DNA of 15,682 bases from IMG/VR virus record IMGVR_UViG_2526164665_000024; one strand, written 5' to 3'. A program made the translations under genes and the position numbers. The notes beneath the pieces are model-generated. The model worked only from the letters and a program-made list of their open reading frames with translations. It searched no databases and had not been told where the DNA came from. Source of the stretch: a virus (lineage: Duplodnaviria > Heunggongvirae > Uroviricota > Caudoviricetes). This document shows, one piece after another, positions 1 through 15,682 of this stretch. The first letter of the stretch is position 1. Each line of letters starts with the position of its first letter.

Positions 1-274
1 TGTCCCCCAGTTCGGCCATCATGGCTTTTGTCTGCTCGCGTAAATCACGCAGGTTACGGGCAATCAGCTCATTACGGGAGGCTTCCCGGCTGATGGCCGC
101 CGGTGAAAGCTGCTGCTCTTCCGGCAGGCCCGCCTCACGGATCAGACGGTTGATTTCCTCGCGTATCTGGACCTGCGTCAGACGTTTTTCACGCAGCATT
201 TCCAGCAGTGGCTTACGGATGCTGTCGGGGAGCAAATCCACCTTGCGCACGCGGCCACGCGTCGGCTTGTCCAT
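1..274 (-). CDS. Mu gp27-like DNA-binding protein (putative small terminase subunit); N-terminal 91 codons only, gene runs off window start
   Basis: Minus-strand ATG at 274-272 preceded by AAGGGGG RBS; frame open down to position 2; translation MDKPTRGRVRKVDLLPDSIRKPLLEMLREKRLTQVQIREEINRLIREAGLPEEQQ...; resembles Mu-like gp27 proteins from memory; sits downstream of the lysis cassette as in Mu. Plus-strand ORF 21..365 is its antisense shadow. Confidence 0.5.
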   Translation of the reverse strand, partial: MDKPTRGRVRKVDLLPDSIRKPLLEMLREKRLTQVQIREEINRLIREAGLPEEQQLSPAAISREASRNELIARNLRDLREQTKAMMAELGD

Positions 275-276
275 CG

Positions 277-567
277 TTACCCCCTTGCGCGTGGTTTCTT
301 CACACCCGGAACGCTGGCGCGGCCTTCCGCCACATCCTGCCCCCGGCCGGTCAGTTCCGCGATGAAATAACCGTTAATCAGAACGCGTTTGCGCACCAGT
401 CCCTGCTCGGCAAGCCAGGCAATGTGGGTGTGAACGGTGTCGCGGGACACGCGGTGGCCGTAATCATCCAGACAGTCCTGGAGCACGGATTCACCCAGTT
501 CACCGTTGTAATCTGCCAGCGACCGCAGAATGACCAGACGCTGATCTTCAGTAATGAAATCACTCAT
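277..567 (-). CDS. hypothetical phage protein (occupies Mu gp26-like position)
   Basis: 96-aa ORF; stop at 277-279 lies 2 nt from next start; no motif I can recognise. Confidence 0.45.
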   Translation of the reverse strand: MSDFITEDQRLVILRSLADYNGELGESVLQDCLDDYGHRVSRDTVHTHIAWLAEQGLVRKRVLINGYFIAELTGRGQDVAEGRASVPGVKKPRARG

Positions 568-871
568 TGCGTTTTTTCCTTACAGCCTGCTCCAGCAGCA
601 GTTCGTTCTGATAGGAGACAGAGCGGAGCGTGGCGTTCGTGGTTTTCAGTTCACCCCGCAGGGTCACGATTTCCACATTCAGACGGTTGACCTCGGCTTC
701 TGTCGGCAGTGACGACAGGCGGGTTTCCACCTTCTCAACGCGGTCGGAGAGTTTTTCAAAGGCCTCGCGGGGGACAAACGTTTTGCGCATCAGCGCCATG
801 AATATCCCGCCAGCGGTTGCCGTCGCCGAAAGGATCGGCACAACATAATCTTTAACGATGCTGACCCACAT
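560..871 (-). CDS. small membrane protein: N-terminal TM helix plus coiled-coil C-terminus (lysis-associated, possibly releasin-like)
   Basis: ATG 871-869 with GGAGG RBS 6 nt upstream; hydrophobic stretch VVPILSATATAGGIFMALM followed by charged heptad-like region; located in lysis cluster. Confidence 0.45.
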   Translation of the reverse strand: MWVSIVKDYVVPILSATATAGGIFMALMRKTFVPREAFEKLSDRVEKVETRLSSLPTEAEVNRLNVEIVTLRGELKTTNATLRSVSYQNELLLEQAVRKKRNE

Positions 872-1079
872 GACGGGCCTCCATGATGTTCTGGCAGTTC
901 ACACAACGGATGGCATCCGGCACAGCAACAAGACGCGCGGCGGGGATCTCTCCGCCACAGTCCGCGCAAATACGTCTACCCGGAGCATCCATTGCCCGGC
1001 GCTTACGTGTCAGCCGGTTACAAAGGGCGCGTTCTGATCCCCGCTCCATCACAGCCTGAGCACGATCTGAATCATCCAT
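852..1079 (-). CDS. TraR/DksA-family C4-type zinc-finger protein
   Basis: CxxC-x17-CxxC (CADCGGEIPAARLVAVPDAIRCVNC); ATG 1079-1077 with AAGGAAAAAGG RBS; the ORF-track extension to 1145 overlaps the spanin gene and lacks an RBS, so the shorter start is preferred. Confidence 0.65.
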   Translation of the reverse strand: MDDSDRAQAVMERGSERALCNRLTRKRRAMDAPGRRICADCGGEIPAARLVAVPDAIRCVNCQNIMEARHVGQHR

Positions 1080-1089
1080 ACCTTTTTCC

Positions 1090-1461
1090 TTACTTCGTCT
1101 TTCCTGCCGGAACAGCAGGCGTTCCGGCCATATCAGTAAATTCATGTTGTCGCCGCGCCTCCAGACGACGAATACTGGCCTTGTCCACGTTGCAGTTCTT
1201 GATCACCGCCAGCAGTTGCAGGTTGTAAGTGACCGATGCCCCAAACGTGAACGGCTCCGGCGCAGGAGGGACCAGGCAGTCAGCCAGCCATTCAGCGGGG
1301 ATCGGCACCGGCTTCACAGGCACGTATTTCACAGACGGCCCGGCGCACCCGATCAGCCACATCATCAGGAACAGGGGCAGAGGCCGCAGGCACTGCTGCC
1401 AGCGACCGGCGGACAACGCTCTGCTGCTCCTCGCTGTGCTGAATGTTCTGTTGCTTTTCAT
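1090..1461 (-). CDS. Rz1-like o-spanin lipoprotein candidate (start uncertain; could be as late as ATG 1365)
   Basis: Lipobox-like LIGC followed by Pro-rich segment CAGPSVKYVPVKPVPIPAEWLADCLVPPAPEPF; in alternate frame overlapping the 3' end of the Rz-like gene; N-terminal 97 aa of ORF 1090..1656 look like out-of-frame read-through. Confidence 0.35.
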   Translation of the reverse strand: MKSNRTFSTARSSRALSAGRWQQCLRPLPLFLMMWLIGCAGPSVKYVPVKPVPIPAEWLADCLVPPAPEPFTFGASVTYNLQLLAVIKNCNVDKASIRRLEARRQHEFTDMAGTPAVPAGKTK

Positions 1462-1792
1462 TCGTGGCCGCCTCACTGATTTGTGAAATGAGTTGCAGGG
1501 TGTGCTGCTGATTTGCCAGCACCTGACGCGCCTCATCCCGCTCACGTACAAGTACCTGATTATTGTCCTCAAGGCGCTGCGTCTTCTGGTGCATTCCCCA
1601 TATCGCAGCAACCAGTACAGCGATAATCCCCAGCGCCGCCATGCACGCCCCGGCAATCAGGGCCGGTAAGGCGTTATTCACCGCAGCCACAGGACACCCC
1701 GTAACAGCAGTACCGCACACAGCAGCGCTATCATGAGCGGTCGCCAGAAGCGGTTCAGACTTTCGGCAAGTCGTAGCGACATAACCATTCAT
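1292..1792 (-). CDS. Rz-like i-spanin candidate
   Basis: Hydrophobic N-terminal segment (ALPALIAGACMAALGIIAVLVAAIW) followed by Q/E-rich coiled coil; immediately downstream of endolysin. Start ambiguous: TTG 1813, ATG 1792 or ATG 1642. Confidence 0.4.
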   Translation of the reverse strand: MNGYVATTCRKSEPLLATAHDSAAVCGTAVTGCPVAAVNNALPALIAGACMAALGIIAVLVAAIWGMHQKTQRLEDNNQVLVRERDEARQVLANQQHTLQLISQISEAATNEKQQNIQHSEEQQSVVRRSLAAVPAASAPVPDDVADRVRRAVCEIRACEAGADPR

Positions 1793-2255
1793 CCGCCGAA
1801 CGGCGGGCCTCAAGGCCGGGAAGTTTCACCCCCTTTGAATAAATCCAGCGGATATACTGCTTACAGGACGCGGGCATCTGCCCGGCATTGATCAGGCGCA
1901 GAAGCGTGGAGTTGCGGAAGTTCGTTTCACCAGCCCAGAAGATCCCACGAAGCCAGCGCCACGTCTGACCACGGGTAAGCGGCACCTGAACACGCCGATC
2001 AATGGCCGCAAAGGCCCATTTCATGTCCTTTTCCAGCAGTTTCAGACATTCTTCATCCGTCAGGGTCATACCCGGTTTCACATCCGGGCCGGTATGGCCG
2101 TAACAGATGGTGGGTGTACCGGTGGGATCGATATACGTGGAGTTTTCTTTCCCTTCCCAGTAACCGGTGTAATGCGTGGCAATCGTGAACGTCCCGGCAC
2201 CGGCCAGAACAAGGGCAATCAGCTTTTTACGCAGTGGTGCGGGGAGTTTTGGCAT
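1755..2255 (-). CDS. lys: SAR endolysin, T4-lysozyme-like (GH24 family)
   Basis: N-terminal signal-anchor-release-like segment (KKLIALVLAGAGTFTIA) plus lysozyme catalytic signature EGKENSTYIDPTGTPTICYGHTG; ATG 2255-2253. Confidence 0.8.
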   Translation of the reverse strand: MPKLPAPLRKKLIALVLAGAGTFTIATHYTGYWEGKENSTYIDPTGTPTICYGHTGPDVKPGMTLTDEECLKLLEKDMKWAFAAIDRRVQVPLTRGQTWRWLRGIFWAGETNFRNSTLLRLINAGQMPASCKQYIRWIYSKGVKLPGLEARRSADEWLCRYDLPKV

Positions 2256-2256
2256 T

Positions 2257-2294
2257 GTTACGCTGTCTCATGATGTTCTCTGAGTCAGCGTAAC
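2257..2294 (-). promoter_or_regulatory. perfect 9-bp inverted repeat (GTTACGCTG / CAGCGTAAC, 20-nt spacer) ending 1 nt upstream of the lys start codon
   Basis: Read directly from sequence: arms at 2257-2265 and 2286-2294; lies between the corrected stop of the Mor/C-family gene (2327) and lys ATG (2255). Confidence 0.35.
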
Positions 2295-2326
2295 GGTGAA
2301 GGAAAGGCGGCAGGCTTTGCGGAATA

Positions 2327-2736
2327 TCAGAAAAGTGGCGGTTGCGTTCTTGCCAGATGCAGACGGCGCTGTTCACGTATGACGGTATAAATCTGGGTTT
2401 CTGACATCCGGTAATGTCGGCGAAGGGATTCAATTTTCTCGCCCCGGTCCCAGCGCGAAAATATCTCATTGTTTCGCAGCTCGGCAAAGAGAGATTCCCC
2501 GACCGGCAGGTAATAACCCCGTCCGCCCATATAGGCGGCCTGAGCCGCAGCCACCTTGCGTGCCAGTTTACCGGCCAGTACCGGCTCAATCCCCTGACGC
2601 TGAAGTTCTGCGCCGGTGACTTCAACCAGTTCTGACAGGGTCCGTGGCCAGTTCTTTTGAGAACATCATCAGGGATGTCATCAAGGCGGTCGATAAGGGC
2701 GTGCAGTTGCTCACTGTCACCACCAAACATGCTCAT
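2327..2736 (-). CDS. Mor/C-family transcriptional activator; frame broken by an apparent 1-nt deletion in the T4 run at 2655-2658
   Basis: N-terminal part in frame of ORF 2227..2736 (MSMFGGDSEQLHALIDRLDDIPDDVL); C-terminal part in frame of ORF 2327..2554 (LSELVEVTGAELQRQGIEPV...LFAELRNNEIFSRWDRGEKIESLRRHYRMSETQIYTVIREQRR), matching the Mor/C HTH pattern recalled from Mu Mor. Adding one A restores a ~136-aa protein. ORF-track tail 2227-2326 is read-through. Confidence 0.6.
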
Positions 2737-2820
2737 CTGAGTTTCTGCCGTATCAGCCTCCGGTTCTCGCGTTCCCGGTAAGTTTAAAATAAAAATCCCG
2801 CGTTGTGGCGGGATTTGGGG

Positions 2821-3353
2821 TTAACGGGGAAGTGATTTTTCATACTGCCTGCAAACGGCGTCATACCCCATCAGCGTGCGTTCGGGCATTCCCATCGCGG
2901 CCAGCATTTTGCGGCGGTGCCATCGCTTGAGACGCTCCAGCACATCTGAGGCCAGGGCGGGGTGTTGCTCCAGCCACTGCCAGTTTGCCACACCTTCGCC
3001 ACCGTTCTGCGCGGCCGTCTGCGATTTCACCCAGCGGTTAAGGGCGGTTTCCGCACCATCAGAGATAAAGCCCTGCCGGTGCATCACCCTCCAGATGGCA
3101 CGAATTTTGGCGGTCACCGTACCCGGTTTTAAGGCCTGGTTAACCGGCTTCTGGCGCACTTTAAAACCGCGTTTTTTGAAACATCCAGCACGCGGGATAA
3201 CTCATCCGGTGACATATCCCGGCAGCTGGTTTTGCCGGTGGCTGCCAGCAGCGCGGATGTATAAGTCTCATCATCCAGGGCAAGCTCGCGCTTTGCCACA
3301 TGAATGGCGGATATCAGTTTTCCTCTCATACCGTATTTACCTTTTACGGACAT
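2821..3353 (-). CDS. GemA-like protein (Mu gp16 family); frame broken by apparent 1-nt deletion in the T-run at 3172-3177
   Basis: KLISAIHVAKRELALDDETYTSALLAATGKTSCRDMSPDELSRVLD is the characteristic GemA-family N-terminal motif (memory); continuation FKKRGFKVRQKPV... is in the frame of ORF 2821..3159. Start ATG 3353 chosen for its AAAAGG RBS. Confidence 0.5.
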
Positions 3354-3370
3354 GGAAAGCCTTTTCTGCC

Positions 3371-3622
3371 TCATCCCACCGGGCATGGTGTGTTGGTGGA
3401 ATAAATCATTATGTGCCAGCCATCTCTGGTTGTTATTCGGCAGAAAAATTCACCGCTATATAACACAATGGCCTGCTGAATGAGCGCATCAGCCGCCCGT
3501 TCAACCGGATGTCTTTTATCAAAAAAGCAGATGATTTTTCGACATAACCACCGGGTAATAACAAATGCGCCGAAAAAGGATGTGATATATAAGCACCAGA
3601 ACAACAGAGAACTATTGTCCAT
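3371..3622 (-). CDS. small membrane protein, unknown function (AT-rich island gene 2)
   Basis: ATG 3622-3620 with AAGGAG RBS 7 nt upstream; N-terminal hydrophobic helix LLFWCLYITSFFGAFVITRWL; local GC clearly lower than flanking phage genes. Confidence 0.45.
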   Translation of the reverse strand: MDNSSLLFWCLYITSFFGAFVITRWLCRKIICFFDKRHPVERAADALIQQAIVLYSGEFFCRITTRDGWHIMIYSTNTPCPVG

Positions 3623-3809
3623 TATCTTTCTCCTTATTCACTCTTCTGCGGCATTCGGCACAGTCATCAGGGCTTTCAAATGTATCCGGCTCGCGATTAT
3701 GAGCCAGATATAACCACCGTCCACATATACTGATATTTTCGCCTGTTTTAAAAAAATGATGCTTCCTGGCCATTAGTGGCCGCGCCCATCCAGCGGGTAG
3801 ACTATTCAT
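3612..3809 (-). CDS. small Cys/His-containing protein, unknown function (AT-rich island gene 1)
   Basis: ATG 3809-3807 with GGAGGA RBS 7 nt upstream; C-x7-H ... C-x2-C spacing (ICGRWLYLAH...DDCAEC) could be a zinc ribbon; 11-nt overlap with the next gene, whose RBS it contains. Confidence 0.4.
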   Translation of the reverse strand: MNSLPAGWARPLMARKHHFFKTGENISICGRWLYLAHNREPDTFESPDDCAECRRRVNKEKDNGQ

Positions 3810-4134
3810 TTGCTTTATCCTCCATACTGGAGAGAATCATATGTATTAATGTCGGGCGTGGAGATATACGCATTTCATTAAGCGTCTGAAGGGCAGCAAC
3901 AGCTGCCTGTTTATCGGTGCCTTTGGCAACTTCAGCAAGAGAATGCACAATCCATAACGGGCTTAACGCTACGGCTGAATGCAGAATCATGTCATCCATA
4001 ATAATTTCTGGCATATCCCGTTTGTCACATTCTTTATCCATAAAAGAAACAATTTTTTCTGCATCTTCCGGTTTCATGCCTCCGGCGATGAGAATTTTAC
4101 GATATTCATAAGACGATCTTAATTCAATACTCAT
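3802..4134 (-). CDS. hypothetical protein (AT-rich island)
   Basis: 110-aa ORF; likely starts at second ATG (4134-4132) given AGGTG position; no recognised motif. Confidence 0.45.
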   Translation of the reverse strand: MSIELRSSYEYRKILIAGGMKPEDAEKIVSFMDKECDKRDMPEIIMDDMILHSAVALSPLWIVHSLAEVAKGTDKQAAVAALQTLNEMRISPRPTLIHMILSSMEDKANE

Positions 4135-4149
4135 CATTCACCTGCCTGT

Positions 4150-4518
4150 TTAATCAGTTTCCAGTGCTTTGCTACGGGCAACAGCCTCACACTCAAAAAA
4201 TACCGACTCCGGCACACGCTCCTTTAATTCACGAACAAGAAAATCATTAACGAGTTCATGACGTCTTATATTTCTTTCCTTTTCCTCCTGGCGCAATACA
4301 GCAAGGCGGTATTCAACAGTCCGGCGTTGTTTCTGAAAGACAGCCAGTGCTTTTCTGGCAGAGTTACGCCATGTATCATCGCCACAGGGTTCGTATTCAA
4401 GCTGAAATTTAATCTCTTCAATGGTTTCTTTTATTTTTGCCAGCAAGCTAAGACAGTCGCTGATTGTCTTCAGTTTTTCATTATCAATATAACTTCTCAC
4501 GCATTCACCTCCCGTCAT
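4150..4518 (-). CDS. hypothetical charged/helical protein (AT-rich island)
   Basis: ATG 4518-4516 overlaps the corrected stop of the upstream gene (ATGA coupling); ORF-track GTG start at 4542 is an alternative; K/E/R-rich helical-looking C-terminal half. Confidence 0.45.
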   Translation of the reverse strand: MTGGECVRSYIDNEKLKTISDCLSLLAKIKETIEEIKFQLEYEPCGDDTWRNSARKALAVFQKQRRTVEYRLAVLRQEEKERNIRRHELVNDFLVRELKERVPESVFFECEAVARSKALETD

Positions 4519-4825
4519 TCCGGTAAAGCTGAAATATGGCACCAGTGCGTCACCTGTCCGTCCTCATCTTCAAGGCAGGCTCCGGTTTCTTCATCAATAA
4601 AAAGCCTTCATACCCCATATGGCCGATGCGCAGTTCCTGTTGGTCACCATACTGAACAATCAGCACGACAGCCTCCATATCAGGCGGGAAAGCATCATTC
4701 AGTGAATGCCAGGGATAACCGCGCAAATCCCCGAAATAAACACCGGTCAGCGTTCCGCCACAGACCGGCATTCCGACGGCACACACAAGGGGTTCATCTG
4801 ATTCAACAAATAATGTCGTTATCAT
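4515..4825 (-). CDS. hypothetical protein; frame broken by apparent 1-nt deletion in A-run 4599-4603 (plus strand)
   Basis: ORF 4550..4825 ends with an implausible tail; shifting one frame gives an acidic C-terminus ...GFFIDEETGACLEDEDGQVTHWCHISALPE and an ATGA overlap with the next gene. Start ATG 4825 overlaps upstream stop. Confidence 0.4.
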
Positions 4826-5372
4826 GGCATTAATTCCCGTAATACAACATCTTCGGCAGTCCGACGACGGTGATAAATAAAACTCACCGTGCCCTCGGAT
4901 AATTCAAATTTCTCGCCGATTTCCCTAAAGGTAAGACGCCGTGGTGATTCAGCATCCCGTAATTCACGAATAAGACGAACATCATCGTCAGGTATGCGGG
5001 TGAAGGGCAGCAACTCTCCGTATTTTTCATGCTTACGCCAATATATCGCGCCCGATTGTGGACAGAATCCCGGTCTCGCCCCAGATATTCTCCTATTTGC
5101 TTACCGGTCATTGTTCTGGCATTTTTTCGGATAAATTTATCTTCATCAGGTTTAAATCTGAGGCGTTTGCATTTGAGCAACTCCGGGTAAGTACCGCGTA
5201 ATAAAACAATCCGGTTATGTACACCCCAGAAACTTCTTTTTATCCTGACAGCAATATCCTTAACCGGGGTGGATGGATAAAGCGCAATCAGCAGCGCATC
5301 TTCTTCAGGTGTCCATGCGCGAACATGAGCGGGTGCACGGCCTTTTCTCCCCATGGGTTGTAATATCATCAT
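4822..5372 (-). CDS. HTH DNA-binding protein with Mor/C-like C-terminal domain; frame broken at T-run 5023-5027 (plus strand)
   Basis: N-terminal part (ORF 4884..5372 frame) has two W/F-x-x-E/D-E-D repeats with HTH-like segments (WTPEEDALLIAL..., FKPDEDKFIRKNARTMTGKQIGEYLGRDRDSVHNRARYIGV); C-terminal part (ORF 4822..5013 frame) LIRELRDAESPRRLTFREIGEKFELSEGTVSFIYHRRR resembles Mor/C HTH. An A6 run would fuse them; otherwise two genes. Strong AGGGGGTGA RBS before ATG 5372. Confidence 0.45.
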
Positions 5373-5375
5373 GCA

Positions 5376-5891
5376 TCACCCCCTGACTCGCTTTTCAGCA
5401 GCATAAAACTCATCAGACAGAATTTCGGTCATTTTCTGTTTTGCGGGTTTTACGCCGCACTGAAGGTAAATCACATCGTCAACGCAGAACCACTCCACAG
5501 GGCCAAACAGGATTGCCGAGAAATCAATGCCCAGCCAGAACAACAGTGCATCGGTTCTGGCATACGTGACGGGCGAATATTCACGCCACAGACTGTTAAG
5601 TTCGTCAGAGGCAACGCGCAGGGCTTTGGGAATACGTGATGTGCGCGGTGTGCAGCTCCAGCCATTCGACGCAGTTGGTTTTCGCCATAAATCACGATGA
5701 AAAGGATATTTGTCCTCCGTAAAACGCAGTCCCTTAAAACAAAAACCACTGATACTGAATTCAAATACCGACCGGCACGCAACATTCAGCACGGCCTCAA
5801 GGCGTTTCGCCTCATCTTTTACCGTCTGGCAGTCCTGCTGGTATTTTTGCCACGCAGCCAGCGCGGAAGGGTTTGATGTTTTAAAGAACAT
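5376..5891 (-). CDS. hypothetical early-region protein (171 aa)
   Basis: ATG 5891 overlaps upstream stop (TAATG) with GGAGGTG RBS; no recognised motif. Confidence 0.5.
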   Translation of the reverse strand: MFFKTSNPSALAAWQKYQQDCQTVKDEAKRLEAVLNVACRSVFEFSISGFCFKGLRFTEDKYPFHRDLWRKPTASNGWSCTPRTSRIPKALRVASDELNSLWREYSPVTYARTDALLFWLGIDFSAILFGPVEWFCVDDVIYLQCGVKPAKQKMTEILSDEFYAAEKRVRG

Positions 5892-6424
5892 TACGCCACC
5901 TCCGCTGATATCCCGGCAGGCGCGGCCGTCCGGTCAACAATCAGGTAACGCAGAACGCGCGAGGTGATATTCCAGCCGCTTAAACCGCAGATAATGACGC
6001 CCAGGCGGATGTCGATATACGACATCACAAACTGGGGCACGCCTTCTTTCATGGCCTGCTCATCAACTTCAGCCACCACATAAACGGTTTCACAGGTCAG
6101 CACGCCCTGAGCAAATTCCCACGCCATCGACGGAATATCATGCCCTTCAATCCACGGCAGGGATTTTCTGAAGCTGCACCACTGAACATCATCAGCCGCA
6201 GACTCCTGGCTGCATTTGCGACGAACCGGCTGCACCGGGCGGGGACGCGGAATATCATAAAAACCGTTACATTCCGTCAGCACGCCTGCATCAACCGCAT
6301 CACGCAGAAAATAAACCATGGAGGATGGCGGCATATTCATTTTTTCAGCCAGAATACCGCAGGTCAGACGTCCGTAAATACGCAGCCAGTTTTTAACCCC
6401 TTCAAGCACTTTTGCATCAATCAT
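5891..6424 (-). CDS. hypothetical early-region protein (177 aa), possible N-terminal winged-helix
   Basis: ATG 6424 with GGAGGAA RBS; N-terminal segment GRLTCGILAEKMNMPPSSMVYFLRDAVDAGVLTE looks wHTH-like (weak inference). Confidence 0.5.
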   Translation of the reverse strand: MIDAKVLEGVKNWLRIYGRLTCGILAEKMNMPPSSMVYFLRDAVDAGVLTECNGFYDIPRPRPVQPVRRKCSQESAADDVQWCSFRKSLPWIEGHDIPSMAWEFAQGVLTCETVYVVAEVDEQAMKEGVPQFVMSYIDIRLGVIICGLSGWNITSRVLRYLIVDRTAAPAGISAEVA

Positions 6425-6427
6425 GAA

Positions 6428-6970
6428 TTATTCCTCCGTCAGCGCCACATATTCAGAATGTTTAATCTCCTGGCATTCTTCAGGAATACCCCCTTTTATT
6501 TCCCTGCCATAAGTTCCTACTTTAAACACCACGCACAGGGCATCACGGGAGAGTGACGGGGTCCACCAGGAGTCCGTGTTAAACATGGAGGGGATTCTCA
6601 TTACCCCCAGCTTTTCACAGAGCCAGACAAGGAAATCAGGACGCTTTCTTAACTCGCGTTCAGCGGCTTCAACCATTGCGGCAATCGCCGGACCTTCAGG
6701 GCATGACTCATCAGGTCTGGCAATAAAGCACGGTCCGCCCCCGATAAAAGCCACATCATCGCGCTTACGCCAGCCCGCAGGCAGAGAACCAGAAAAATAA
6801 AACTCACTGATTACGTCCATGGCGAACGGCTTTAAGCGCAATCCGGCAGCGCCTGTATTTTTCAGTAATGCCCGAAGAATACTGTTGCGTAGCGGTAAAA
6901 CATCCCGCTGATATTCGGTTAAATATTTATTTGTGTACACTATGTCTAATTTGAAATAAAAATATGCCAT
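6428..6970 (-). CDS. hypothetical early-region protein (180 aa)
   Basis: ATG 6970 with AAGGAA RBS; first gene after the gam-downstream intergenic gap; no recognised motif. Confidence 0.5.
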   Translation of the reverse strand: MAYFYFKLDIVYTNKYLTEYQRDVLPLRNSILRALLKNTGAAGLRLKPFAMDVISEFYFSGSLPAGWRKRDDVAFIGGGPCFIARPDESCPEGPAIAAMVEAAERELRKRPDFLVWLCEKLGVMRIPSMFNTDSWWTPSLSRDALCVVFKVGTYGREIKGGIPEECQEIKHSEYVALTEE

Positions 6971-7067
6971 GTTTCCGATTCCTTATTTTCAGCTTTCAGG
7001 CGCAGGCAGTCCCCTGACGCGAGCGCCATAATTAAAACGATGTGATATTTAAAGATTTAATGTGGTG

Positions 7068-7597
7068 TTATTTATTCAGTCCGGCGTCCTGTTCAAAAGG
7101 CTCGACATAAAAACTTTCAGCGCCTTTATTCACCTTTATACCGGCAATGCCTTTCACCGCATCCGGCTCCGCCAGGACGGCTTCCTTGTTCACTTCCTCT
7201 TTCGTGCGGATGAATCGCTCAAGCCCCATAAGGCGCAGCATTTCAATCACGCCTTCCACATCACGGCTGACGCTGCATGATGGATTTCCCAGCCGCCATG
7301 ACACCGTGCCGGTGGTCAGATTGGCAGTTTTTGTTTTGCCGCCGTTCGTCAGCTCATCTCGGTTGGTTTTGCACCAGTCCTGAATCCCCTTAAAAAGCAC
7401 TTTGATTTCTTTTTAAGGTTTTCAATTTGCGGCGTATAACGGGCGGTGATTTCTGCCACTTCATCATTCATCGCCGTTTCCAGCCGCAGCGCCTCTCGCT
7501 GAATATCGCCCAGGGTGCGGATATCGCGGCTGACCTCTTCGCGGGTCTGCGGTGCAGCCTCGGCTGCGGCCTTTAATTTTGTAACGCGTTTTGCCAT
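7068..7597 (-). CDS. gam: Gam, host-nuclease inhibitor (Ku-like DNA end-binding protein); frame broken by apparent 1-nt deletion in T5 run at 7410-7414
   Basis: N-terminal ORF 7349..7597 and C-terminal ORF 7068..7400 together align with Mu Gam as I recall it (ASRLETEMNDAIAEIT ... GWCEANRDELTNGGKVKTANL ... LERLGLQRFIRTKQEINKEA ... PFEQEAG). Restoring one A in CTTAAAAAG gives continuous ...IENLKKEIKVLFKGIQDWCKTNRDELTNGG. Confidence 0.85.
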
Positions 7598-7608
7598 TTT
7601 GTTTTTCC

Positions 7609-7902
7609 TTATTGCAGTGTGCCTGATGCTTTATGCACGCGGTGGCGTTTAATGATGGCATCCGCCCCAAAAGCCTGTACAGATGCCTGAAATTCCGCTG
7701 AGAGAAACTGAATAATTTCAGGACTGTGATACTGGAGAATACTTACATAAACGTCACAGAGTGACGTCGGCCTGTTATTCGTATCACGTTCTGTTTTTAC
7801 ATCCACACCAATCTTTTCATGCACTTCAACACAGTCATTGCCTGCCGGTTTTTCGTCATGCGAAACATGCTTAAATTCAAAAATAACGCGTACTTTGCTC
7901 AT
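7609..7902 (-). CDS. hypothetical small protein, tandem paralog 2 (MSKVRVIFEFKH...)
   Basis: ATG 7902-7900 with AGGGGT RBS; N-terminus and internal pattern parallel the adjacent gene 7907..8179. Confidence 0.5.
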   Translation of the reverse strand: MSKVRVIFEFKHVSHDEKPAGNDCVEVHEKIGVDVKTERDTNNRPTSLCDVYVSILQYHSPEIIQFLSAEFQASVQAFGADAIIKRHRVHKASGTLQ

Positions 7903-7906
7903 GGAA

Positions 7907-8179
7907 TTACCCCTGCTGATTAAATTCATTACCTTTAATAACCCCGGAACGCATGCTCATATCTTTCATGAGCGCACTGGCTTTCATTGCCACAAGTTCA
8001 GCAAAGTCTCTGCTTTCCGCGAGCATAACCACCCCAAAAATCATGGCAGGTCCATCACCTTTCTGCTTTATCCCGGTTGAACGTATGTCCAGACTTATCC
8101 CCATGCGCACTGTTCCATCCGCGTTTTTATGGATAACGTGCTCCTTGTATTCGAAAATAATGCGTACGACTTTACTCAT
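7907..8179 (-). CDS. hypothetical small protein, tandem paralog 1 (MSKVVRIIFEYKEH...)
   Basis: ATG 8179-8177 overlaps upstream stop (ATGA); GAGGA RBS; paralogous to 7609..7902. Confidence 0.5.
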   Translation of the reverse strand: MSKVVRIIFEYKEHVIHKNADGTVRMGISLDIRSTGIKQKGDGPAMIFGVVMLAESRDFAELVAMKASALMKDMSMRSGVIKGNEFNQQG

Positions 8180-8457
8180 CCTCTGGTCCTCGTTCTGTTT
8201 GGATAACTGACCCGGCGTCTGACCTCACGGCAGAACCGAATCATGGCATTAAAGGCTTCTTCCTCCGTCACCGCTTCCGGTATCCCCGGAACCAGTAACT
8301 GCTCCTGTTCATCACGTCCATGACGCGCCATAACCTCAATCACATGCCGTACCGTGGCAGGCTTTCCGGCAACTATCGGCAATGCACCTTCCGGCAGGAC
8401 GTAACCAAACTCAATAAGACCACTCGACCACGCCCATGCAATGAGAATTTTTTTCAC
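8176..8457 (-). CDS. hypothetical early-region protein (93 aa)
   Basis: GTG start 8457-8455 preceded by GGGAGGTG RBS; no recognised motif. Confidence 0.5.
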   Translation of the reverse strand: MKKILIAWAWSSGLIEFGYVLPEGALPIVAGKPATVRHVIEVMARHGRDEQEQLLVPGIPEAVTEEEAFNAMIRFCREVRRRVSYPNRTRTRG

Positions 8458-8458
8458 C

Positions 8459-8713
8459 TCACACCTCCCAGTAAACCGTGCAGCCGCTGATGCGGGTGGC
8501 CTTCACACGGCGGCGCAGGCCGTTGGTCTGTATGGTGATTTCAATTTCACCGGTTCCCTGCACGTTGCCTACCGGCGGCGTGGTTTTCAGTGCAAAACGT
8601 TGCGGATAGCGCTTACTGCGTTCCAGTACCGCACCGGCAAGTTCGGTCAGACGGCGCGCGCTGTTCAGGGAGTCGAATAAATTCATTTTGTTACCGCAGG
8701 ATTGCATATTCAT
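8459..8713 (-). CDS. hypothetical early-region protein (~84 aa)
   Basis: ATG 8713 (MNMQSCGNK...) with GAGGTG RBS; the ORF-track start at 8725 lacks an RBS. Confidence 0.45.
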   Translation of the reverse strand: MNMQSCGNKMNLFDSLNSARRLTELAGAVLERSKRYPQRFALKTTPPVGNVQGTGEIEITIQTNGLRRRVKATRISGCTVYWEV

Positions 8714-8725
8714 ATAACACCTCAT

Positions 8726-8947
8726 TTAGCTGACTTGTTTCGCACCAACAGAACGGCATATTCCGCTGTAAACTTCTGTCGCACCTTCGCGATCAAGTCC
8801 GGCAGATATCACCATTCGTGTGCGGTCATTAAATTCAAAAAGTAAATCGCCACATTCTTTATTTTCGGCCAGTGAAATCACCTTCACGTTATCGAAATTA
8901 ACCAGGTAAAAGCGTCCGTAAATATCAGGAATATAAAATACCGCCAT
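8726..8947 (-). CDS. small protein in the Kil position immediately after B (putative host cell-division inhibitor, by position only)
   Basis: ~74 aa, starts within a few nt of the B stop (GTG 8953 overlapping, or ATG 8947 with AGGTG RBS); Mu kil has the same size and position. Sequence identity not verifiable from memory. Confidence 0.35.
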   Translation of the reverse strand: MAVFYIPDIYGRFYLVNFDNVKVISLAENKECGDLLFEFNDRTRMVISAGLDREGATEVYSGICRSVGAKQVS

Positions 8948-8949
8948 AA

Positions 8950-9882
8950 TCACACCTGTGAGAGTAATTCAGGGTTGGTATAAACCTCTTTAAAGGCCGC
9001 ATTAATATGTTTTTCTGTCAGCGCCGCACCTTCACCGCTGGCGGTGAGCCACGCCTGGTTAAGCGTATGTGTCAGAACGCGTAACGCTCCCGGCTTTTCA
9101 GCGATAGCCTGCATGACGGCCAGCTCGGCCTCACCACTGATCCCCCACGCCCTGGCAATGGCCAGCACATCCGCCTTTTTGGCCTTGCGAAGTTGTTTTG
9201 TACGGGCAAGACGGCTGAACAGGCGCGATAAATCATCAAAGGCGCGGCGTCCACCTTTAAACAATCCGCGCGGGTTACCAATAAGCACCATCCCGATCCC
9301 CGTGGCGTCCTGAATTGCCCGGAGTTGCTCCAGACCGTCAATACCAAGATGATCCGCCTCATCCACAATCACCAGTCCACGCGTTCCCATCAGGCGACGG
9401 CGGATGGCGCGGGATAATGCCCCTTTGTTCGCGCGGGTGTAATCAATCCCCAGCGCATCGGCCAGCTCCAGCAGACACTCCGTGACGCTGGAGTGCGCGG
9501 GTGACAGGGTGATCATCCAGGTGTTTGGTTGCTCCTGGCAGTAATTACGGGCAGTGGCCGTTTTACCCACACCCGGTACGCCCACAATAACGTTAATACA
9601 GCCCATCAGACGAACCGCCTGAAACAGTGTGCGCAGCTCCTGGACTGTCTGCGTTTCCACAAACTGCGGCGGTTCCGGCAGTGCGCTTTGTTTATTCCAG
9701 TTCTCATACCAGGAACGCAGGGAAGCAGCCACAGCAGCGTTATCGCCTTTATATTTTCCCTTACGGAAAGCCGATAATGTGCCGTCGGAAATTCCCGCCT
9801 CTCTGGCGATGGCATACTGTGTCAGTACGCCGCCATCAATAAGTTCATCAATGGTCTTGATTACATCGTTAATATCAGTCAT
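8950..9882 (-). CDS. B: MuB-like AAA+ ATPase, transposition target-DNA activator
   Basis: 310 aa (Mu B is ~312); Walker A GVPGVGKT; N-terminal HTH-like region; directly downstream of transposase A; GAGAGG RBS before ATG 9882. Confidence 0.9.
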   Translation of the reverse strand: MTDINDVIKTIDELIDGGVLTQYAIAREAGISDGTLSAFRKGKYKGDNAAVAASLRSWYENWNKQSALPEPPQFVETQTVQELRTLFQAVRLMGCINVIVGVPGVGKTATARNYCQEQPNTWMITLSPAHSSVTECLLELADALGIDYTRANKGALSRAIRRRLMGTRGLVIVDEADHLGIDGLEQLRAIQDATGIGMVLIGNPRGLFKGGRRAFDDLSRLFSRLARTKQLRKAKKADVLAIARAWGISGEAELAVMQAIAEKPGALRVLTHTLNQAWLTASGEGAALTEKHINAAFKEVYTNPELLSQV

Positions 9883-9916
9883 ATTATTAACCTCTCATTT
9901 GATACCTTGTTTAATC

Positions 9917-9954
9917 AAATAACCTGAGTCGCCGCTCGGGTTATTTTTTTATTT
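9917..9954 (+). terminator. stem-loop (AAATAACCTGAG / CTCGGGTTATTT, one mismatch) followed by a T-rich run on the plus strand; terminator-like structure in the A-B spacer
   Basis: Read directly: arms 9917-9928 and 9935-9946, then TTTTTTTATTT. On the minus (sense) strand it is preceded by an A-run rather than followed by a U-run, so if it terminates anything it would be antisense transcription. Confidence 0.3.
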
Positions 9955-10082
9955 CAGGCCAGCGGGTCATTTTCTTTTAATTTCGCTTCCAGCAACTGCA
10001 ATCCCCGCTGGAAATTACGCTCGTATTCTTCATCAGGTTCATCGTCAGCGACCGGTTGCTGAACGGTCACCGTATTACCCAC
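9954..10082 (-). CDS. small ORF in the A-B spacer (42 codons from GTG), or out-of-frame C-terminal extension of transposase A
   Basis: Frame of ORF 9954..10160 gives a protein-like acidic tail NTVTVQQPVADDEPDEEYERNFQRGLQLLEAKLKENDPLA; its upstream part overlapping A looks like out-of-frame junk. Frame relation to A is not a single-base deletion. Confidence 0.25.
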   Translation of the reverse strand: MGNTVTVQQPVADDEPDEEYERNFQRGLQLLEAKLKENDPLA

Positions 10083-12045
10083 TAGGGCGGTATATGTTTT
10101 CCAGCCAGGGCTCCTGCGGCTTGTGCTCCAGCACGTTGACAACCTCATCCTCGGCATCACGGATTTTTTCCTCTGCGCGTTTACGCATGCCTTTAAGGCG
10201 TTGCTGCTGTTTGTAGTATTCCGCGCTAACCGGGAAGGCTTCGCGTTTATTACCGTCCCATACCGCCTCGCAAATCACGCTGCCATCCAGGCGACGTACG
10301 GTAATTCGTTCGGCATCATGAATGTCATAGCTGATAAGCACCTTACGGCCATGCTCGTCACGCAGCTCGGGCGCGTAGTAAATATTATTCAGCCAGCGTA
10401 TTTCACAGCGTCTTACAGGGCGTTCCACCATCGGCCGGAACATATCCCGCAGCTCAACATCGGACAGCCATTCAATTTCCGTGTCCTCTTCCGCCAGGCG
10501 TTTTTTTCTGAACTCCGCCGGGCTGTAATGCTTGCCGTTCGGCTTCACCGGTAATTCATCGTGCGGCCGGTTGTTGTACCACTCAACACCATCACGAATG
10601 GCATCAATCAGTTCAGCCCAGGACGGTAAATCACGCATCGCTGACTGTTGCCGGGCGTTCAGCCGTTTGCCCTGTTGCAGGGCGGTAAATGCCGAGCGTA
10701 AATCGCGGTTGGTTTTGCGTAACGTCTCGCGATCTGCACCTTTCCCGAAATAGGTGCGGTATTTACGGGCTATGCGCATCGGTAATGTGCGGTTAAGCCG
10801 TTCGATAATGCCCCGTCCCTGCGGGTTACCGGCAATCCCGGTCGGGTGATTAATCCCCAGTCGCGGCAGTATCCCCACAACCTCCTTATCCAGGATGTCG
10901 GCGGTTTCCCCGGAGCCGTTATCCGAGTAATACAGAAACGGTTTGCCGTGATGGCGAATGCCGTGCTGTATGGCACCGGCTACGGCGAAAACATTTTCAG
11001 CCAGGTCAAGGCTCCAGCCCACCACAAAGCGCGTGCCACCGTCGATAACAAAGGTCACTTCCGGTGCAAATGGCCGACCGTGAACCGGGTGTGCGCATTT
11101 CAGCTTCATGCCGTGACCGTCACCAATCCAGACATAATTCACCGGCATTTTTGACCAGTCGCGGCGCGTGAATCCCTCAAGCTGGCGGTATTCACTGCCG
11201 GTCACCCGGCCTTTTTGTTTCACCACTTCCGGCAGTTTCTTCATTGCGCGGCGAATGGTGTCATAAGACGGCATGATATCGAGCATATAAGGCTCATCAG
11301 CGTGCCGGTGCTGCCATTCAGCGACAAAATCCTCGTAAGCCTCGGTCATTGGTCGGCCGTTTGACTGGCGATACTGCGCCAGAAATTCGGGCAGCCAGTT
11401 AATATCTTCGGCTTTTATTTCCTGGCGCTTACCCGGTGCCAGTAAAAGCAGGCGTTCAGCGGCGTTCTGCGCCTTGTTAAAGGCCGCAATCCAGCGTTTC
11501 AGCGTGATTTCACTTAACGCGCGGCTGTTTCCCTTTTTGGCGTTCGCCGTCTCAACCATTGCCACAATGCGCTCGTCCAGCTGCGAACGTGCCAGGTTGT
11601 CAACGATAAACCGGATAGCCTTCGCACAGCTGAAACCAGGTTGTTGCGCGACTTTCAGAACTTCGCTGACGATCGCGATTCGTGCATCAGCCACCTGGCG
11701 CTGGTTTTCAGTCAGGGCATTAAGGCGTTCGACCATCAGTTGTGGTGATCCGCGATATGCCTCCACCGCATCAACCACGGCAGGCGAGCGTCTGGCCTTT
11801 GTCACCACCGGAGCCGGTGATTCATCGACTTTTTGCGTCATCAGTTGCAGGGCGTAGCGTTCACGTAATGCCTGCTGCGTCACTTCAGGTAAACAGTCGA
11901 TGCTGTATTCAGTTGCTTTAGAGCCTGAGCGACGACGGGAACAACAGCTTTTCCCTTGTACGTAACGTTGTAATGCCTGGCGAATACCTTTTGTTGTAGC
12001 AGGCATTCCGGGCGCGCCAATCAGTTCTTTTGCAATGACATACAT
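10075..12045 (-). CDS. A: MuA-like DDE transposase
   Basis: 656 aa (Mu A is 663); N-terminal enhancer/end-binding domain resembling Mu A (GSKATEYSIDCLPE vs Mu GGKAIEYN..SLP); DDE-region motifs WIGDGHGM and YYSDNGSGE; gene order ner-A-B. Confidence 0.92.
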   Translation of the reverse strand: MYVIAKELIGAPGMPATTKGIRQALQRYVQGKSCCSRRRSGSKATEYSIDCLPEVTQQALRERYALQLMTQKVDESPAPVVTKARRSPAVVDAVEAYRGSPQLMVERLNALTENQRQVADARIAIVSEVLKVAQQPGFSCAKAIRFIVDNLARSQLDERIVAMVETANAKKGNSRALSEITLKRWIAAFNKAQNAAERLLLLAPGKRQEIKAEDINWLPEFLAQYRQSNGRPMTEAYEDFVAEWQHRHADEPYMLDIMPSYDTIRRAMKKLPEVVKQKGRVTGSEYRQLEGFTRRDWSKMPVNYVWIGDGHGMKLKCAHPVHGRPFAPEVTFVIDGGTRFVVGWSLDLAENVFAVAGAIQHGIRHHGKPFLYYSDNGSGETADILDKEVVGILPRLGINHPTGIAGNPQGRGIIERLNRTLPMRIARKYRTYFGKGADRETLRKTNRDLRSAFTALQQGKRLNARQQSAMRDLPSWAELIDAIRDGVEWYNNRPHDELPVKPNGKHYSPAEFRKKRLAEEDTEIEWLSDVELRDMFRPMVERPVRRCEIRWLNNIYYAPELRDEHGRKVLISYDIHDAERITVRRLDGSVICEAVWDGNKREAFPVSAEYYKQQQRLKGMRKRAEEKIRDAEDEVVNVLEHKPQEPWLENIYRPSG

Positions 12046-12046
12046 A

Positions 12047-12295
12047 TCATGACGCCTTTCTCATATAGCTCTTAACCTGGTATCGACTGGGCCAGATTTC
12101 TTCAGGCGATACCCCAAGAGCATCAGCAATTATTTGCTGATACGGTCGGCAAGGAGTACGTAATACGCTTTTCAGCGAATCCCTGCTGTAACCAGCCTTT
12201 AAAGATAAAGAGCGCAGTGATAAGCCAGCCATGTGTAAGCGCGCCTTGATGATTTCAGGCGGCCAATCGTGATCTGAAACTTCTCTTCTACTCAT
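12047..12295 (-). CDS. ner: Ner-like DNA-binding early regulator
   Basis: 82 aa; DWPPEIIKARLHMAGLSLRSLSLKAGY...QQIIADALGVSPEEIWPSRYQ aligns closely with Mu Ner as recalled (DWHRADVIAGLKKRKLSLSALSRQFGY...EQIIANALETKPEVIWPSRYQ); GAGGAAG RBS; directly upstream of A. Confidence 0.85.
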   Translation of the reverse strand: MSRREVSDHDWPPEIIKARLHMAGLSLRSLSLKAGYSRDSLKSVLRTPCRPYQQIIADALGVSPEEIWPSRYQVKSYMRKAS

Positions 12296-12485
12296 ACTTC
12301 CTCTATTCTAAAAAGTTACCCGCGCGGATATTCGTGCGGATATCTGCACGGGTAAATAATGCATCACTAAAAATACCAAATCAAGGTATTTTTGGTATTT
12401 TGGCTAATTTTTGCTTTTGTCCTTATTTTTCAATTGGATAAATAGAAAGAAACCTTTCCTTAGAAAAGCACCAAGAGGTATCTTT
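12296..12485. promoter_or_regulatory. divergent promoter/operator region between ner and the repressor gene
   Basis: 190-bp AT-rich intergenic region between divergent genes; 7-bp inverted repeat TTACCCG/CGGGTAA (12316-12322, 12349-12355) enclosing direct repeats GCGGATAT (12324-12331, 12336-12343); 11-bp perfect palindrome arms AAAATACCAAA/TTTGGTATTTT (12370-12380, 12391-12401) with tandem GGTATTTT repeats; AAGAGG RBS at 12472-12477. Confidence 0.55.
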
Positions 12486-13016
12486 ATGTCGCAGGGAAAA
12501 GAACCTGTTATTGAACGTATTGGAATGCTTACAAAGCGCTACCCTTCAAGAAGTGCAGCTGCCAGAGCGTGGGGAATCAATATCAACACATTAAACAGCT
12601 ATTTCAAGGGAGGACAAACACAACCAGCCCCCAGAGAAAGTATCCTTATACGAATTTCTGAAAGTGAAGGAGTTAGTCTTGAGTGGCTTAAAGAGGGCAA
12701 GGGTGAATCACCAAACGATGTTGGTATTTGTGGTAATTTTGGTTGTTCTGGTGATAAGGGAGATCAACTTACACAGATGCTTTCATTCCTTACGAAAGAC
12801 GAACGAGAACAGTTAACCAATCTCCTTGCTCGCAAAGGTGTAGAGACGGTTCTGACACTGCTGGATAAAGAAAACCAGGATTTATTACAACTAGAAGGCA
12901 GGAAGCGCCTGGCTGCGTTGATGATTGTAGATATGCCAGACGATTGCGTCAGAGAGATTTTGGAAAAAACCGAGACAAGTAGGCAATCAAATCCGGTAGA
13001 ATCTAAAGCGGGTTAG
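12486..13016 (+). CDS. prophage repressor, HTH DNA-binding (Mu c-like by position)
   Basis: ATG 12486 with AAGAGG RBS (the ORF-track start at 12411 has none); HTH-like SRSAAARAWGININTLNSYFKG; transcribed divergently from ner-A-B, the position of Mu c. Confidence 0.65.
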   Translation: MSQGKEPVIERIGMLTKRYPSRSAAARAWGININTLNSYFKGGQTQPAPRESILIRISESEGVSLEWLKEGKGESPNDVGICGNFGCSGDKGDQLTQMLSFLTKDEREQLTNLLARKGVETVLTLLDKENQDLLQLEGRKRLAALMIVDMPDDCVREILEKTETSRQSNPVESKAG

Positions 13017-13178
13017 TTTGGCGAGGCTGGCCCGTATGTTAGTTGCCATATAGATTTAATGAAGTTTTAAACGCTTTAAAAAGTTGAGATCGCAGTATCA
13101 AAAGTTTTGCCGATTTTAGAATAAACGATTAATTATTGCACAATCGGTATCAAATAGACTTTAAGCGCTCATCCAGAC

Positions 13179-13260
13179 ATCACCTGTTTTATTTCAGTAT
13201 CTTACAGGTGATTTCACCTCCTTTCACTAAAACCCTCGTTGGTATCAAATGATTCACCTG
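13179..13260. repeat. cluster of TCACCTG / CAGGTGA motif copies incl. two palindromic arrangements; candidate protein-binding sites (possible transposase end-binding sites)
   Basis: ATCACCTG 13179-13186 and its inverse CAGGTGAT 13205-13212; AGGTGA-tt-TCACCT 13206-13219; GATTCACCTG 13251-13260; direct copies ~34-40 bp apart, 165-245 bp beyond the repressor stop. Confidence 0.4.
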
Positions 13261-14446: not shown

Positions 14447-14471
14447 CCGCACTCTTATGTCAAGAGTGCGG
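14447..14471. repeat. perfect 10-bp-stem hairpin (CCGCACTCTT-atgtc-AAGAGTGCGG) directly abutting the IS3 terminus
   Basis: Read directly; last base of the stem is 14471 and the IS3 terminal TGATCC starts at 14472. No adjacent T/U tract on either strand. Confidence 0.6.
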
Positions 14472-14501
14472 TGATCCTACCCACGTAATATGGACACAGG
14501 C

Positions 14502-15324: not shown

Positions 15325-15619
15325 TTCAGGCGCTTCGCGAAGTATGTCGCGGCCTTTTGGAGGATAGCCAGCTCTTCATCCCGTTCTGCCAGCTGGCGTT
15401 TGAGACGTGCAATCTCGGTAGACATCTCCAGTTCACGTTCAGAAGACGTCTGCTGATTTTGCTGTTTACTGCGCCAGTTGTAGAGCTGTGATTCATACAG
15501 GCTGAGTTCACGGGCTGCGGCAGTAACACCGATGCGTTCAGCAAGCTTCAGGGCTTCACTGCGAAATTCAGGCGAATGCTGTTTACGGGGTTTTTACTGG
15601 TTGATACTGTTTTTGTCAT
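15321..15619 (-). pseudogene. insE: IS3 orfA (HTH transposase subunit), frameshifted by 1-nt deletion in homopolymer at 15591-15595
   Basis: Translation MTKTVSTSK then shift; canonical IS3 OrfA as recalled is MTKTVSTSKKPRKQHSPEFRSEALKLAERIGV...; window has AAAAACCCC where A6 is expected; downstream frame gives ...[37 protein letters not shown] with TGA overlapping orfB ATG. Confidence 0.85.
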
Positions 15620-15682
15620 GTGAGTCACCTCTGACTGAGAGTTTACTCACTTAGCCGCGTGTCCACTATTGCTGGGTAAGAT

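Follow-up and report, generated by a model that had tools for sequence, protein, structure and literature searches.

Exchangeable small genes upstream of GemA in a Mu-like prophage of Escherichia coli

The DNA analysed here (the window) is a single strand of 15,682 nucleotides, IMG/VR virus record IMGVR_UViG_2526164665_000024 (Caudoviricetes). Its sequence identifies it as a Mu-like prophage of the Sp18 type from E. coli, the genes of which lie on the minus strand; positions 1–13266 share 99.83% identity with the Mu-like prophage of E. coli O157:H7 strain Z852, from which they differ by 10 substitutions and 12 one-base gaps. The Sp18 prophage type was described in O157 Sakai, where it is predicted to be intact (PMC2669165). 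The subject of this report is a block of four small genes, p116, p110, p65 and p98, which an earlier sequence-only reading of the window had marked at 3371–4518 as an AT-rich, independently acquired cassette. That reading placed the block between Mor and GemA, which is wrong: the minus-strand gene order puts it upstream of GemA. The full order, for which RefSeq annotation of the intact copy was combined with Pfam and PHROG scans, starts with a repressor on the plus strand and runs through a Ner-like gene, transposase A, ATPase B, five small genes, Gam, three Mu gp11/gp12-like genes and dbp183. It then continues with five hypothetical genes (p103, p116, p110, p65 and p98), GemA of the gp16 family, a terminator, a Mor/C-family activator and lysozyme (Table 1). 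The flanking genes are homologous to those of Mu-type phages, with 67% identity between p177 and Mu gp11, 54% between p171 and Mu gp12, and 43% between GemA and its counterpart in SfMu. The slot is bounded on its upstream side by dbp183 and on its downstream side by the conserved gene GemA, and the content between them differs from one relative to the next.

Gene models and base composition of the block

The intact relatives give true sizes of 116, 110, 65 and 98 residues for the four products. Two of the sizes read from the window alone, 65 and 110, stand. The 83-residue frame (3371–3622) is a disrupted p98: compared with the intact copy, the window has one A too many at 3403 and lacks a base at 3341. 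The 122-residue frame, with its start at 4518, is less likely than a start at the GTG at 4500 because GGAGG lies 7 nt upstream of this GTG and all homologues begin there. Good Shine–Dalgarno sequences precede all four genes. The GGAGG type that had been ascribed to the whole block is present before p116 and p65, while AAGGAG precedes p98 and AGGTGA precedes p110. Similarly, the overlapping starts and stops are real for p110/p65 (8 nt), p65/p98 (11 nt) and, in intact copies, p98/GemA (4 nt, ATGA), and absent between p116 and p110, which are separated by about 15 nt (12 nt to an alternative upstream ATG). A gap of 14 nt separates p103 from p116.

Table 1. Features of the slot and its surroundings, with positions in the window, listed in the direction of the minus strand.
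Feature	Position	Strand	Description
dbp183	4822..5372	minus	D5-like / SANT-Myb + HTH DNA-binding protein; PHROG 323, weak Pfam HTH matches, RefSeq annotation
p103	4515..4825	minus	acidic 103-aa ORFan; PHROG 6925; further exchangeable gene of the slot
p116	4150..4500	minus	116-aa helical protein; GTG start after GGAGG, PGAP start in intact copy; PHROG 6158, 1.8e-57
p110	3802..4134	minus	110-aa acidic protein (pI 5.2); PHROG 1988, 2.1e-44
p65	3612..3809	minus	65-aa His-Cys3 protein; PHROG 2358, 4.7e-34
p98	3326..3622	minus	98-aa protein with N-terminal transmembrane segment; PHROG 17269; intact in Z852 copy and Sakai ECs_4959
GemA	2821..3329	minus	gp16 family; Pfam PF06252 matches on both halves; intact 169 aa in Z852 copy
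Intrinsic terminator	2793..2816	minus	nine-pair stem and T-run, directly after GemA
Mor/C-family activator	2327..2751		141 aa

The window differs from its closest relatives by 13 one-base indels, 12 in the prophage and one in the host flank (569-571, 1944, 1961, 2654, 3178, 3341, 3403, 4598, 5022, 7409, 10083 and 15590). Nine of the 12 prophage gaps are changes in the length of a homopolymer run. Taken at face value they would break A (at its C-terminus), Gam, dbp183 (at 5022), p103 (at 4598), p98, GemA and Mor/C, and would shift a few codons of lysozyme. GemA is split into two ORFs by the indel at 3178, and the indel at 3341, just upstream of its start, falsely extends the listed GemA ORF to 3386. 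Since the ratio of indels to substitutions is near or above one and the changes fall in homopolymers, the indels are probably sequencing or assembly errors rather than signs of prophage decay, and the intact gene models are therefore taken as the real ones.

All four ORFs are real genes under purifying selection. Across alleles from RefSeq and IMG/VR loci, pN/pS is 0.15 for p116, 0.15 for p110, 0.14 for p65 and 0.09 for p98; the neighbours used for comparison give 0.18 (GemA) and 0.14 (the gp11-like gene). Each ORF also matches a PHROG family without assigned function (E 1e-26 to 1e-57). Chance frames in AT-rich non-coding DNA would be small, as these ORFs are, and would lack Pfam domains, as these do, and one of the four is broken in the window. 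This explanation is nevertheless scarcely credible and is already refuted by conservation: besides the low pN/pS over many alleles and the PHROG matches, homologues at 30–70% identity with conserved motifs occur in other genera, the AF2 model of p116 is confident, and an Rfam scan of the window returned no match.

The GC content of 3371–4518 is 0.429, against a prophage mean of 0.512 (s.d. 0.042) over segments of the same 1148 bp. About 2% of such segments are equally low, all of them in the c/ner regulatory region, and the remainder of the semi-essential early region has a mean of 0.494 and a minimum of 0.462. The dip lies mainly at third codon positions, where the four genes have a GC3 of 0.34–0.44 compared with 0.64 for GemA, 0.58 for A and B and 0.57 for Gam (core genes including lysozyme, 0.57–0.64). 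The boundary is sharp towards GemA (block 0.43, GemA 0.56) and gradual on the other side, with a GC3 of 0.40 for dbp183 and 0.47 for p103. The lower GC noted earlier by eye, relative to the flanking phage genes, is thus a real difference when computed, for GC3 as for overall GC. The genes that occupy the slot in Mu and SfMu are also AT-rich (GC 0.44–0.49, against 0.54–0.55 for GemA).

Content of the slot in related prophages and wider distribution of its genes

The block matches 223 of 5426 complete E. coli genomes, nearly all in the chromosome; in the phage collection its sole match is a Mu-like insert inside an Stx2c phage record. Five RefSeq architectures between dbp183 and GemA were read directly. 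The window and Z852 carry p103, p116, p110, p65 and p98, whereas Sakai Sp18 lacks p103 and has a single 61-aa membrane protein (TM61) in place of p103 and p116 together, followed by p110, p65 and p98. The strain M3 prophage contains p103 and p98. That of JE86-ST02 contains p103, p116, a p110 variant whose C-terminus differs (p110') and a reverse DUF2513 gene, and that of strain 600029 contains p103, a Mu-gp14-like gene and a reverse 79-aa gene. At the same slot Mu has gp13, gp14 and gp15, to which SfMu adds a homologue of p110. In window positions, the replacements in Sakai (about 4150 and 4818) and M3 (about 3626 and 4510) break at gene boundaries. Those in JE86-ST02 and 600029 begin inside GemA (about 3306) and end, respectively, inside p110 (about 3891) and in the p103/p116 gap (about 4512). 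The synteny comparison thus gives a variable accessory slot at a fixed position, filled by different gene sets.

The alternative occupants all have a GC content of 0.37–0.42. They comprise Sakai ECs_5772, a 61-aa double-hydrophobic protein (2854–3039 of comparison locus L004), the reverse DUF2513 protein (L006, 2075–2485), which is also found in many true Mu relatives, the reverse 79-aa ORF (L007, 2084–2323) and a reverse 113-aa ORF between GemA and Mor (L005, 1126–1467). The reverse-oriented occupants are the better candidates for expression in the lysogen.

Judged by their sequence matches in about 230 E. coli genomes and many viral contigs, the four genes are present or absent independently of one another and do not form one unit. 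At least nine coverage classes of the block occur among the sampled rows of matching E. coli genomes, including p116 alone, p98 alone, and the four genes with a second p98 allele that is 51% identical to the first. The distributions beyond the lineage differ as well. The p98 family is confined to seven protein clusters and 18 viral loci, all of the E. coli lineage and divided between these two alleles. Homologues of p116 (35–45% identity) are encoded just before xis in Fraca and SaltyDalty, HK97-like phages of the Hendrixvirinae, with further relatives in Salmonella and Serratia prophages; in exhaustive and word-indexed searches the family amounts to 17 protein clusters.

The p110 family is represented by only nine clusters among 1.84 billion proteins, and 56 viral contigs yielded homologues. 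Of these, 34 more distant p110 contigs were examined: every one with a recognisable flanking marker is Mu-like, and in 31 of the 34 the gene was shown to lie in this slot, no more than two genes ahead of GemA. On this sequence evidence p110 is restricted to Mu-like phages and always occupies this slot. Its company varies: Mu gp13, gp14/gp15, a reverse DUF2513 gene, or GemA itself, which p110 may abut directly. The homologue in SfMu is gp14 (34% identity by tblastn), a gene that Mu itself lacks.

The p65 family, likewise 17 protein clusters in the same searches, travels furthest. Homologues at 59–71% identity are found in about 40 non-Mu viral contigs, among them a lambdoid contig (L030), where the gene sits among nin-type genes downstream of the replicative helicase, and a Klebsiella phage, where it lies beside DNA methyltransferases. 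In distant Mu-like phages a homologue directly precedes GemA (L027). At 45% identity the family extends to 283 Pseudomonas phage records, such as gp85 of Pbunavirus 14-1. This protein resembles p65 over residues 5–56 with the His and three Cys kept and is also encoded in a run of small hypothetical genes; unlike p65 it is carried by a virulent Pseudomonas phage. A constant neighbour of p65 outside the Mu-like phages was considered and rejected, as the two common neighbours reflect near-identical lambdoid prophages.

Because of this independent presence and absence, and because the genes are distributed differently in other phages, the block is not one co-inherited cassette, contrary to the sequence-only reading. 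A single jointly acquired functional unit (an anti-defence operon, an abortive-infection or defence system, or a toxin–antitoxin-like module) is accordingly quite unlikely, even though the genes are contiguous and co-oriented, share a low GC3 and three overlapping junctions, and occur all together in 116 of the 223 matching genomes. The block boundaries proposed earlier do coincide with one real replacement, since strain 600029 exchanges nearly exactly this segment (about 3306–4512) for a different two-gene block. The genes still assort independently, in partial sets of p110, p65 and p98 (the Sakai type, frequent), p116 and p110, p98 alone or p116 alone. Outside the lineage they are never found together, with p65 alone in nin regions and Pbunavirus, p116 beside xis and p110 in relatives of Mu and SfMu, and the four have no matches in PADLOC, Pfam or NCBIfam that would mark such a system. 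From the distributions of p65, p116, p110 and p98 it follows that the slot is fed by small early genes that temperate phages have in common, a pool that in the case of p65 extends to virulent phages.

A conserved core early function in transposition, replication or the early-to-late switch, with the low GC arising from amino-acid or regulatory constraints, is very unlikely. It would fit the recurrence of p110 in the same slot across many enterobacterial Mu-like lineages and the purifying selection, which is as strong as on core genes; furthermore, with a single Mor/C activator located after the early terminator, some early gene could supply a missing regulatory step. However, Mu itself lacks all four genes, the otherwise collinear prophages of M3 and 600029 lack most or all of them, so that the genes are not core in all relatives, and the low GC is located at third codon positions.

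Predicted products and neighbouring genes

The proteins are already in the databases as hypothetical proteins and unnamed PHROGs. The sequence-only reading had described a Cys/His protein, a single-pass membrane protein and two charged helical proteins, which agrees with p65, p98, and p110 and p116, respectively. It could place none of them in a known family, and this is upheld by profile searches (Pfam, PHROG, NCBIfam and PADLOC). Scans with Pfam, NCBIfam and PADLOC gave no family match for any of the four, and the PHROG matches are to families without assigned function. The PADLOC defence HMMs gave nothing for p116, p65 and p98 and only E = 0.035 to PDC-S72 for p110. Nor was homology to anti-defence proteins seen in Pfam, NCBIfam, PDB sequences or the structural comparison of p116, a result obtained without a dedicated anti-defence library. 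The clusters of the four families contain no multidomain relatives from which to borrow annotation, and tblastn against Mu and SfMu gave no match for p65, p98 and p116.

The AF2 model of p116 (pLDDT 86) consists of three helices (residues 13–36, 42–95 and 98–115), of which the central one is 54 residues long. The sole match obtained when profiles of the four proteins were compared with PDB sequences, that of p116 to the Abraxas coiled coil (E 7e-4), is regarded as compositional, and hhalign gives 0.1% probability for kinship with Mu gp14, so that no remote relationship is indicated. p110 is also probably helical.

In p98 a hydrophobic segment at residues 5–23 (Kyte–Doolittle 19-residue mean 1.82) is followed by basic residues, a sequence pattern that fits an N-out, C-in membrane anchor. 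An 85-aa membrane protein encoded upstream of p65 in some contigs was rejected as a relative (hhalign 0.9%).

The most distinctive sequence is that of p65. His18, Cys29, Cys50 and Cys53 are invariant in homologues down to 37% identity, and Gly7 and Trp8 are nearly so. The four conserved potential metal ligands have a knuckle-like spacing, which suggests a small zinc-stabilised module with a putative zinc site. There is no match to a Pfam zinc ribbon, and comparison with Mu gp13 by hhalign (3.3% probability) indicates no remote kinship.

Among the neighbouring genes, dbp183 occurs within the lineage as two allele groups that are about 72% identical. Its family, PHROG 323, is found again near the p65 homologues in the Klebsiella phage (L089, 6610–7188), and Mu gp9 is likewise annotated as D5-like; dbp183 may itself be a mobile early regulator. 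A DUF551-like assignment of p103, based on a C-terminal motif, was dropped for want of Pfam support. A 191-aa ORF on the plus strand (4258–4833), antisense to p116 and p103, found no support in family searches and was treated as spurious. In Mu, Mor is encoded within the early operon and C separately. The Mor/C-family activator of the window is the only one of its family in the prophage and follows the early terminator; it is more similar to the SfMu C homologue (39%) than to the SfMu Mor homologue (28%).

Two observations lie further afield. In SfMu, an unannotated stretch (L002, 7442–7943) encodes a homologue of Mu gp12 and p171 in two frames (52–53% identity) and would represent either a frameshifted gene or one missed in the record. 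At the other end of the window, the prophage end (...TTACA, about 13266) abuts chromosomal DNA beside cobU. The 2.4-kb host flank (13267–15682) contains IS4 and cobalamin-gene remnants as well as an IS3 that is degenerate and frameshifted. Its sequence is the same as in O26-type and E2865 strains, and in comparison with E2865 it shows no substitutions and one T missing from a T6 run. No complete RefSeq E. coli genome was seen to carry the prophage at this cobU-side insertion site.

Transcription, proposed role and parallels in other phages

The four genes are co-oriented with the repressor-controlled early operon and tightly packed in it. The terminator directly after GemA has a folding energy of −13.5 kcal/mol (z −4.3), which none of 200 shuffled sequences equals, and, judging by its sequence, the early transcript with the four genes probably ends here. 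In consensus scans the block contained no more promoter-like sites than chance predicts (5, with 6.2 expected) and no convincing terminator, the sole strong one being that after GemA. In Mu, the long Pe transcript carries A, B and the semi-essential region, which consists of mostly uncharacterised ORFs and whose deletion restores host viability after infection (PMC3820752, PMC3325207).

The segment 3326–4500 together with p103 is probably a region of genomic plasticity, located distally in the early (Pe-type) operon and directly upstream of GemA, in which the four genes are unrelated, exchangeable ORFans. They would behave as independent modules, swapped in and out by recombination at gene boundaries and drawn from a repertoire that other Mu-like phages share and that, in the case of p65 and p116, extends to the early accessory regions of lambdoid and virulent phages. 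Upon induction or infection they would be transcribed by read-through from the early promoter, and the run of p110, p65, p98 and GemA may be translationally coupled. Each product alone could act as a small binder of a host or host-defence component in the early lytic phase: p65 as a zinc-stabilised mini-protein, p98 as a protein anchored in the inner membrane and having a cytoplasmic domain, and p110 and p116 as helical and probably oligomeric proteins. On permissive hosts the phage would do without them, as Mu does without its semi-essential early genes; that some prophages of the lineage lack them is indirect support. The likeliest role is that of individual early host-takeover or counter-defence factors. 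The host-interaction or anti-defence function proposed for the block from sequence alone remains plausible. The accompanying suggestion of abortive infection or defence fares less well, as there are no PADLOC matches, the operon is co-oriented and packed, and the block has no promoter or terminator of its own above chance; given this operon arrangement, an abortive-infection or lysogen-protecting role is not favoured.

It is unlikely that one or more of the genes, with p98 as the foremost candidate, have a moron-like function of lysogenic conversion or superinfection exclusion that is expressed from the prophage and benefits the host. The AT-rich composition is typical of morons, a membrane anchor is predicted for p98, and the 61-aa product of the alternative Sakai gene is double-hydrophobic. 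Low-level transcription of semi-essential genes from Pe and Pe* occurs in Mu lysogens (PMC3820752), and other variants of the slot hold reverse genes (DUF2513, Mu gp15 and the 79-aa ORF) that are possibly expressed in the lysogen. Against this, the genes follow the direction of the repressed early operon and overlap each other and GemA, promoter-like matches are at chance level, flanking terminators are absent, and p98, with its seven clusters, has no similarity to known exclusion proteins.

Several observations weigh against the proposal of early, independently acting effectors from an exchangeable pool. The timing of expression is deduced from gene arrangement alone, and low-level Pe transcription has been reported in Mu lysogens, so a role in the lysogen is possible (PMC3820752). 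p110, p65 and p98 often co-occur and would be coupled in translation, which makes a functional link among these three possible. A Foldseek comparison of the p116 model with PDB and BFVD gave no match at E<1e-3, only generic helical hairpins. For p65, AF2 gives a weak model (pLDDT 64) of short strands and then a helix starting at the CxxC, and Foldseek with this model found nothing significant (best E>3, several small zinc-finger modules among the matches); since the model is weak and the search without significant match, zinc binding by p65 stays putative. A screen of 38 Pbunavirus early ORFans found few to be growth-inhibitory and does not state whether the p65 homologue was included (PMC8085984). 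Finally, no mention of the Sakai locus tags was found in the literature, and the papers on Sp18 contain no gene-level information.

The closest known system is the semi-essential region of Mu, between B/kil/gam and gemA/mor, which has the same position in a collinear early operon with homologous flanking genes. Location in the early operon, co-orientation and a content that varies among collinear relatives are all found here as in a region of the Mu type. Mu gp13, gp14 and gp15 resemble the genes of the block in being small, mostly uncharacterised and AT-rich relative to GemA, and gp13 is, like p65, a small Cys-rich protein. Unlike in Mu, however, none of the four is homologous to gp13, gp14 or gp15 (hhalign 3% and 0.1%, no tblastn match), this copy has no reverse gp15, the terminator lies after GemA and there is one Mor/C-type activator.

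A second parallel is provided by the Mu-like phages D3112, DMS3 and PaMx73 of Pseudomonas, whose short accessory ORFs occupy regions of genomic plasticity (RGPs) at set loci, for the most part in the early arm (PMC4378225). These ORFs have 34–100 codons and some encode anti-CRISPRs (Cazares et al. 2014, PMC4378225). Like the slot described here, the RGPs differ between collinear genomes and deviate in composition; they differ in host, share no sequence similarity with it, and the anti-CRISPR region is RGP G, whereas the present slot lies in the early operon (PMC4378225). By analogy, the slot can be regarded as the enterobacterial counterpart of the Pseudomonas regions. The lambdoid nin and pL-distal (ea/xis-proximal) regions represent the same kind of delayed-early, non-essential and mosaic gene pool, on a different backbone and in operons controlled by antitermination rather than on a Mu Pe transcript. 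A classical moron is expressed from the prophage as an autonomous transcription unit, with a promoter upstream and a terminator downstream. With morons in the sense of Juhala and Hendrix the block genes share their presence in only some close relatives and a composition unlike that of their neighbours; in contrast to them, the genes overlap within an operon and the block contains no promoter or terminator signal of its own.

Whether any of the proteins belongs to a new family of phage early effectors with a specific host or defence target, making the slot a hotspot of anti-defence or host takeover, is a more tentative matter. This may be so for at least one of the four, p65 being the best candidate, and it is rather less probable than the plasticity of the region itself. 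Because p65 is common to enterobacterial Mu-like and lambdoid phages and the virulent Pbunavirus phages of Pseudomonas, its target, if it is an effector, would be conserved across the gamma-proteobacteria, and the slot before GemA would have its parallel in the anti-CRISPR locus of the Pseudomonas Mu-like phages. The occurrence of the same family in temperate and virulent phages of different hosts makes p65 the most attractive of the four for functional screens.

In practical terms the value of these results is modest. The annotation of the window is corrected, in that one-base homopolymer indels disrupt many of its genes. Beyond this, the analysis delimits a bounded hotspot at about 3326–4825, between dbp183 and GemA, at which at least 10 alternative small genes are exchanged by enterobacterial Mu-like prophages, elements that Shiga-toxin-producing E. 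coli commonly carry. Hotspots of this kind in other phages have repeatedly yielded genes for counter-defence and host manipulation, and the slot therefore offers a short list of candidates for functional screens.

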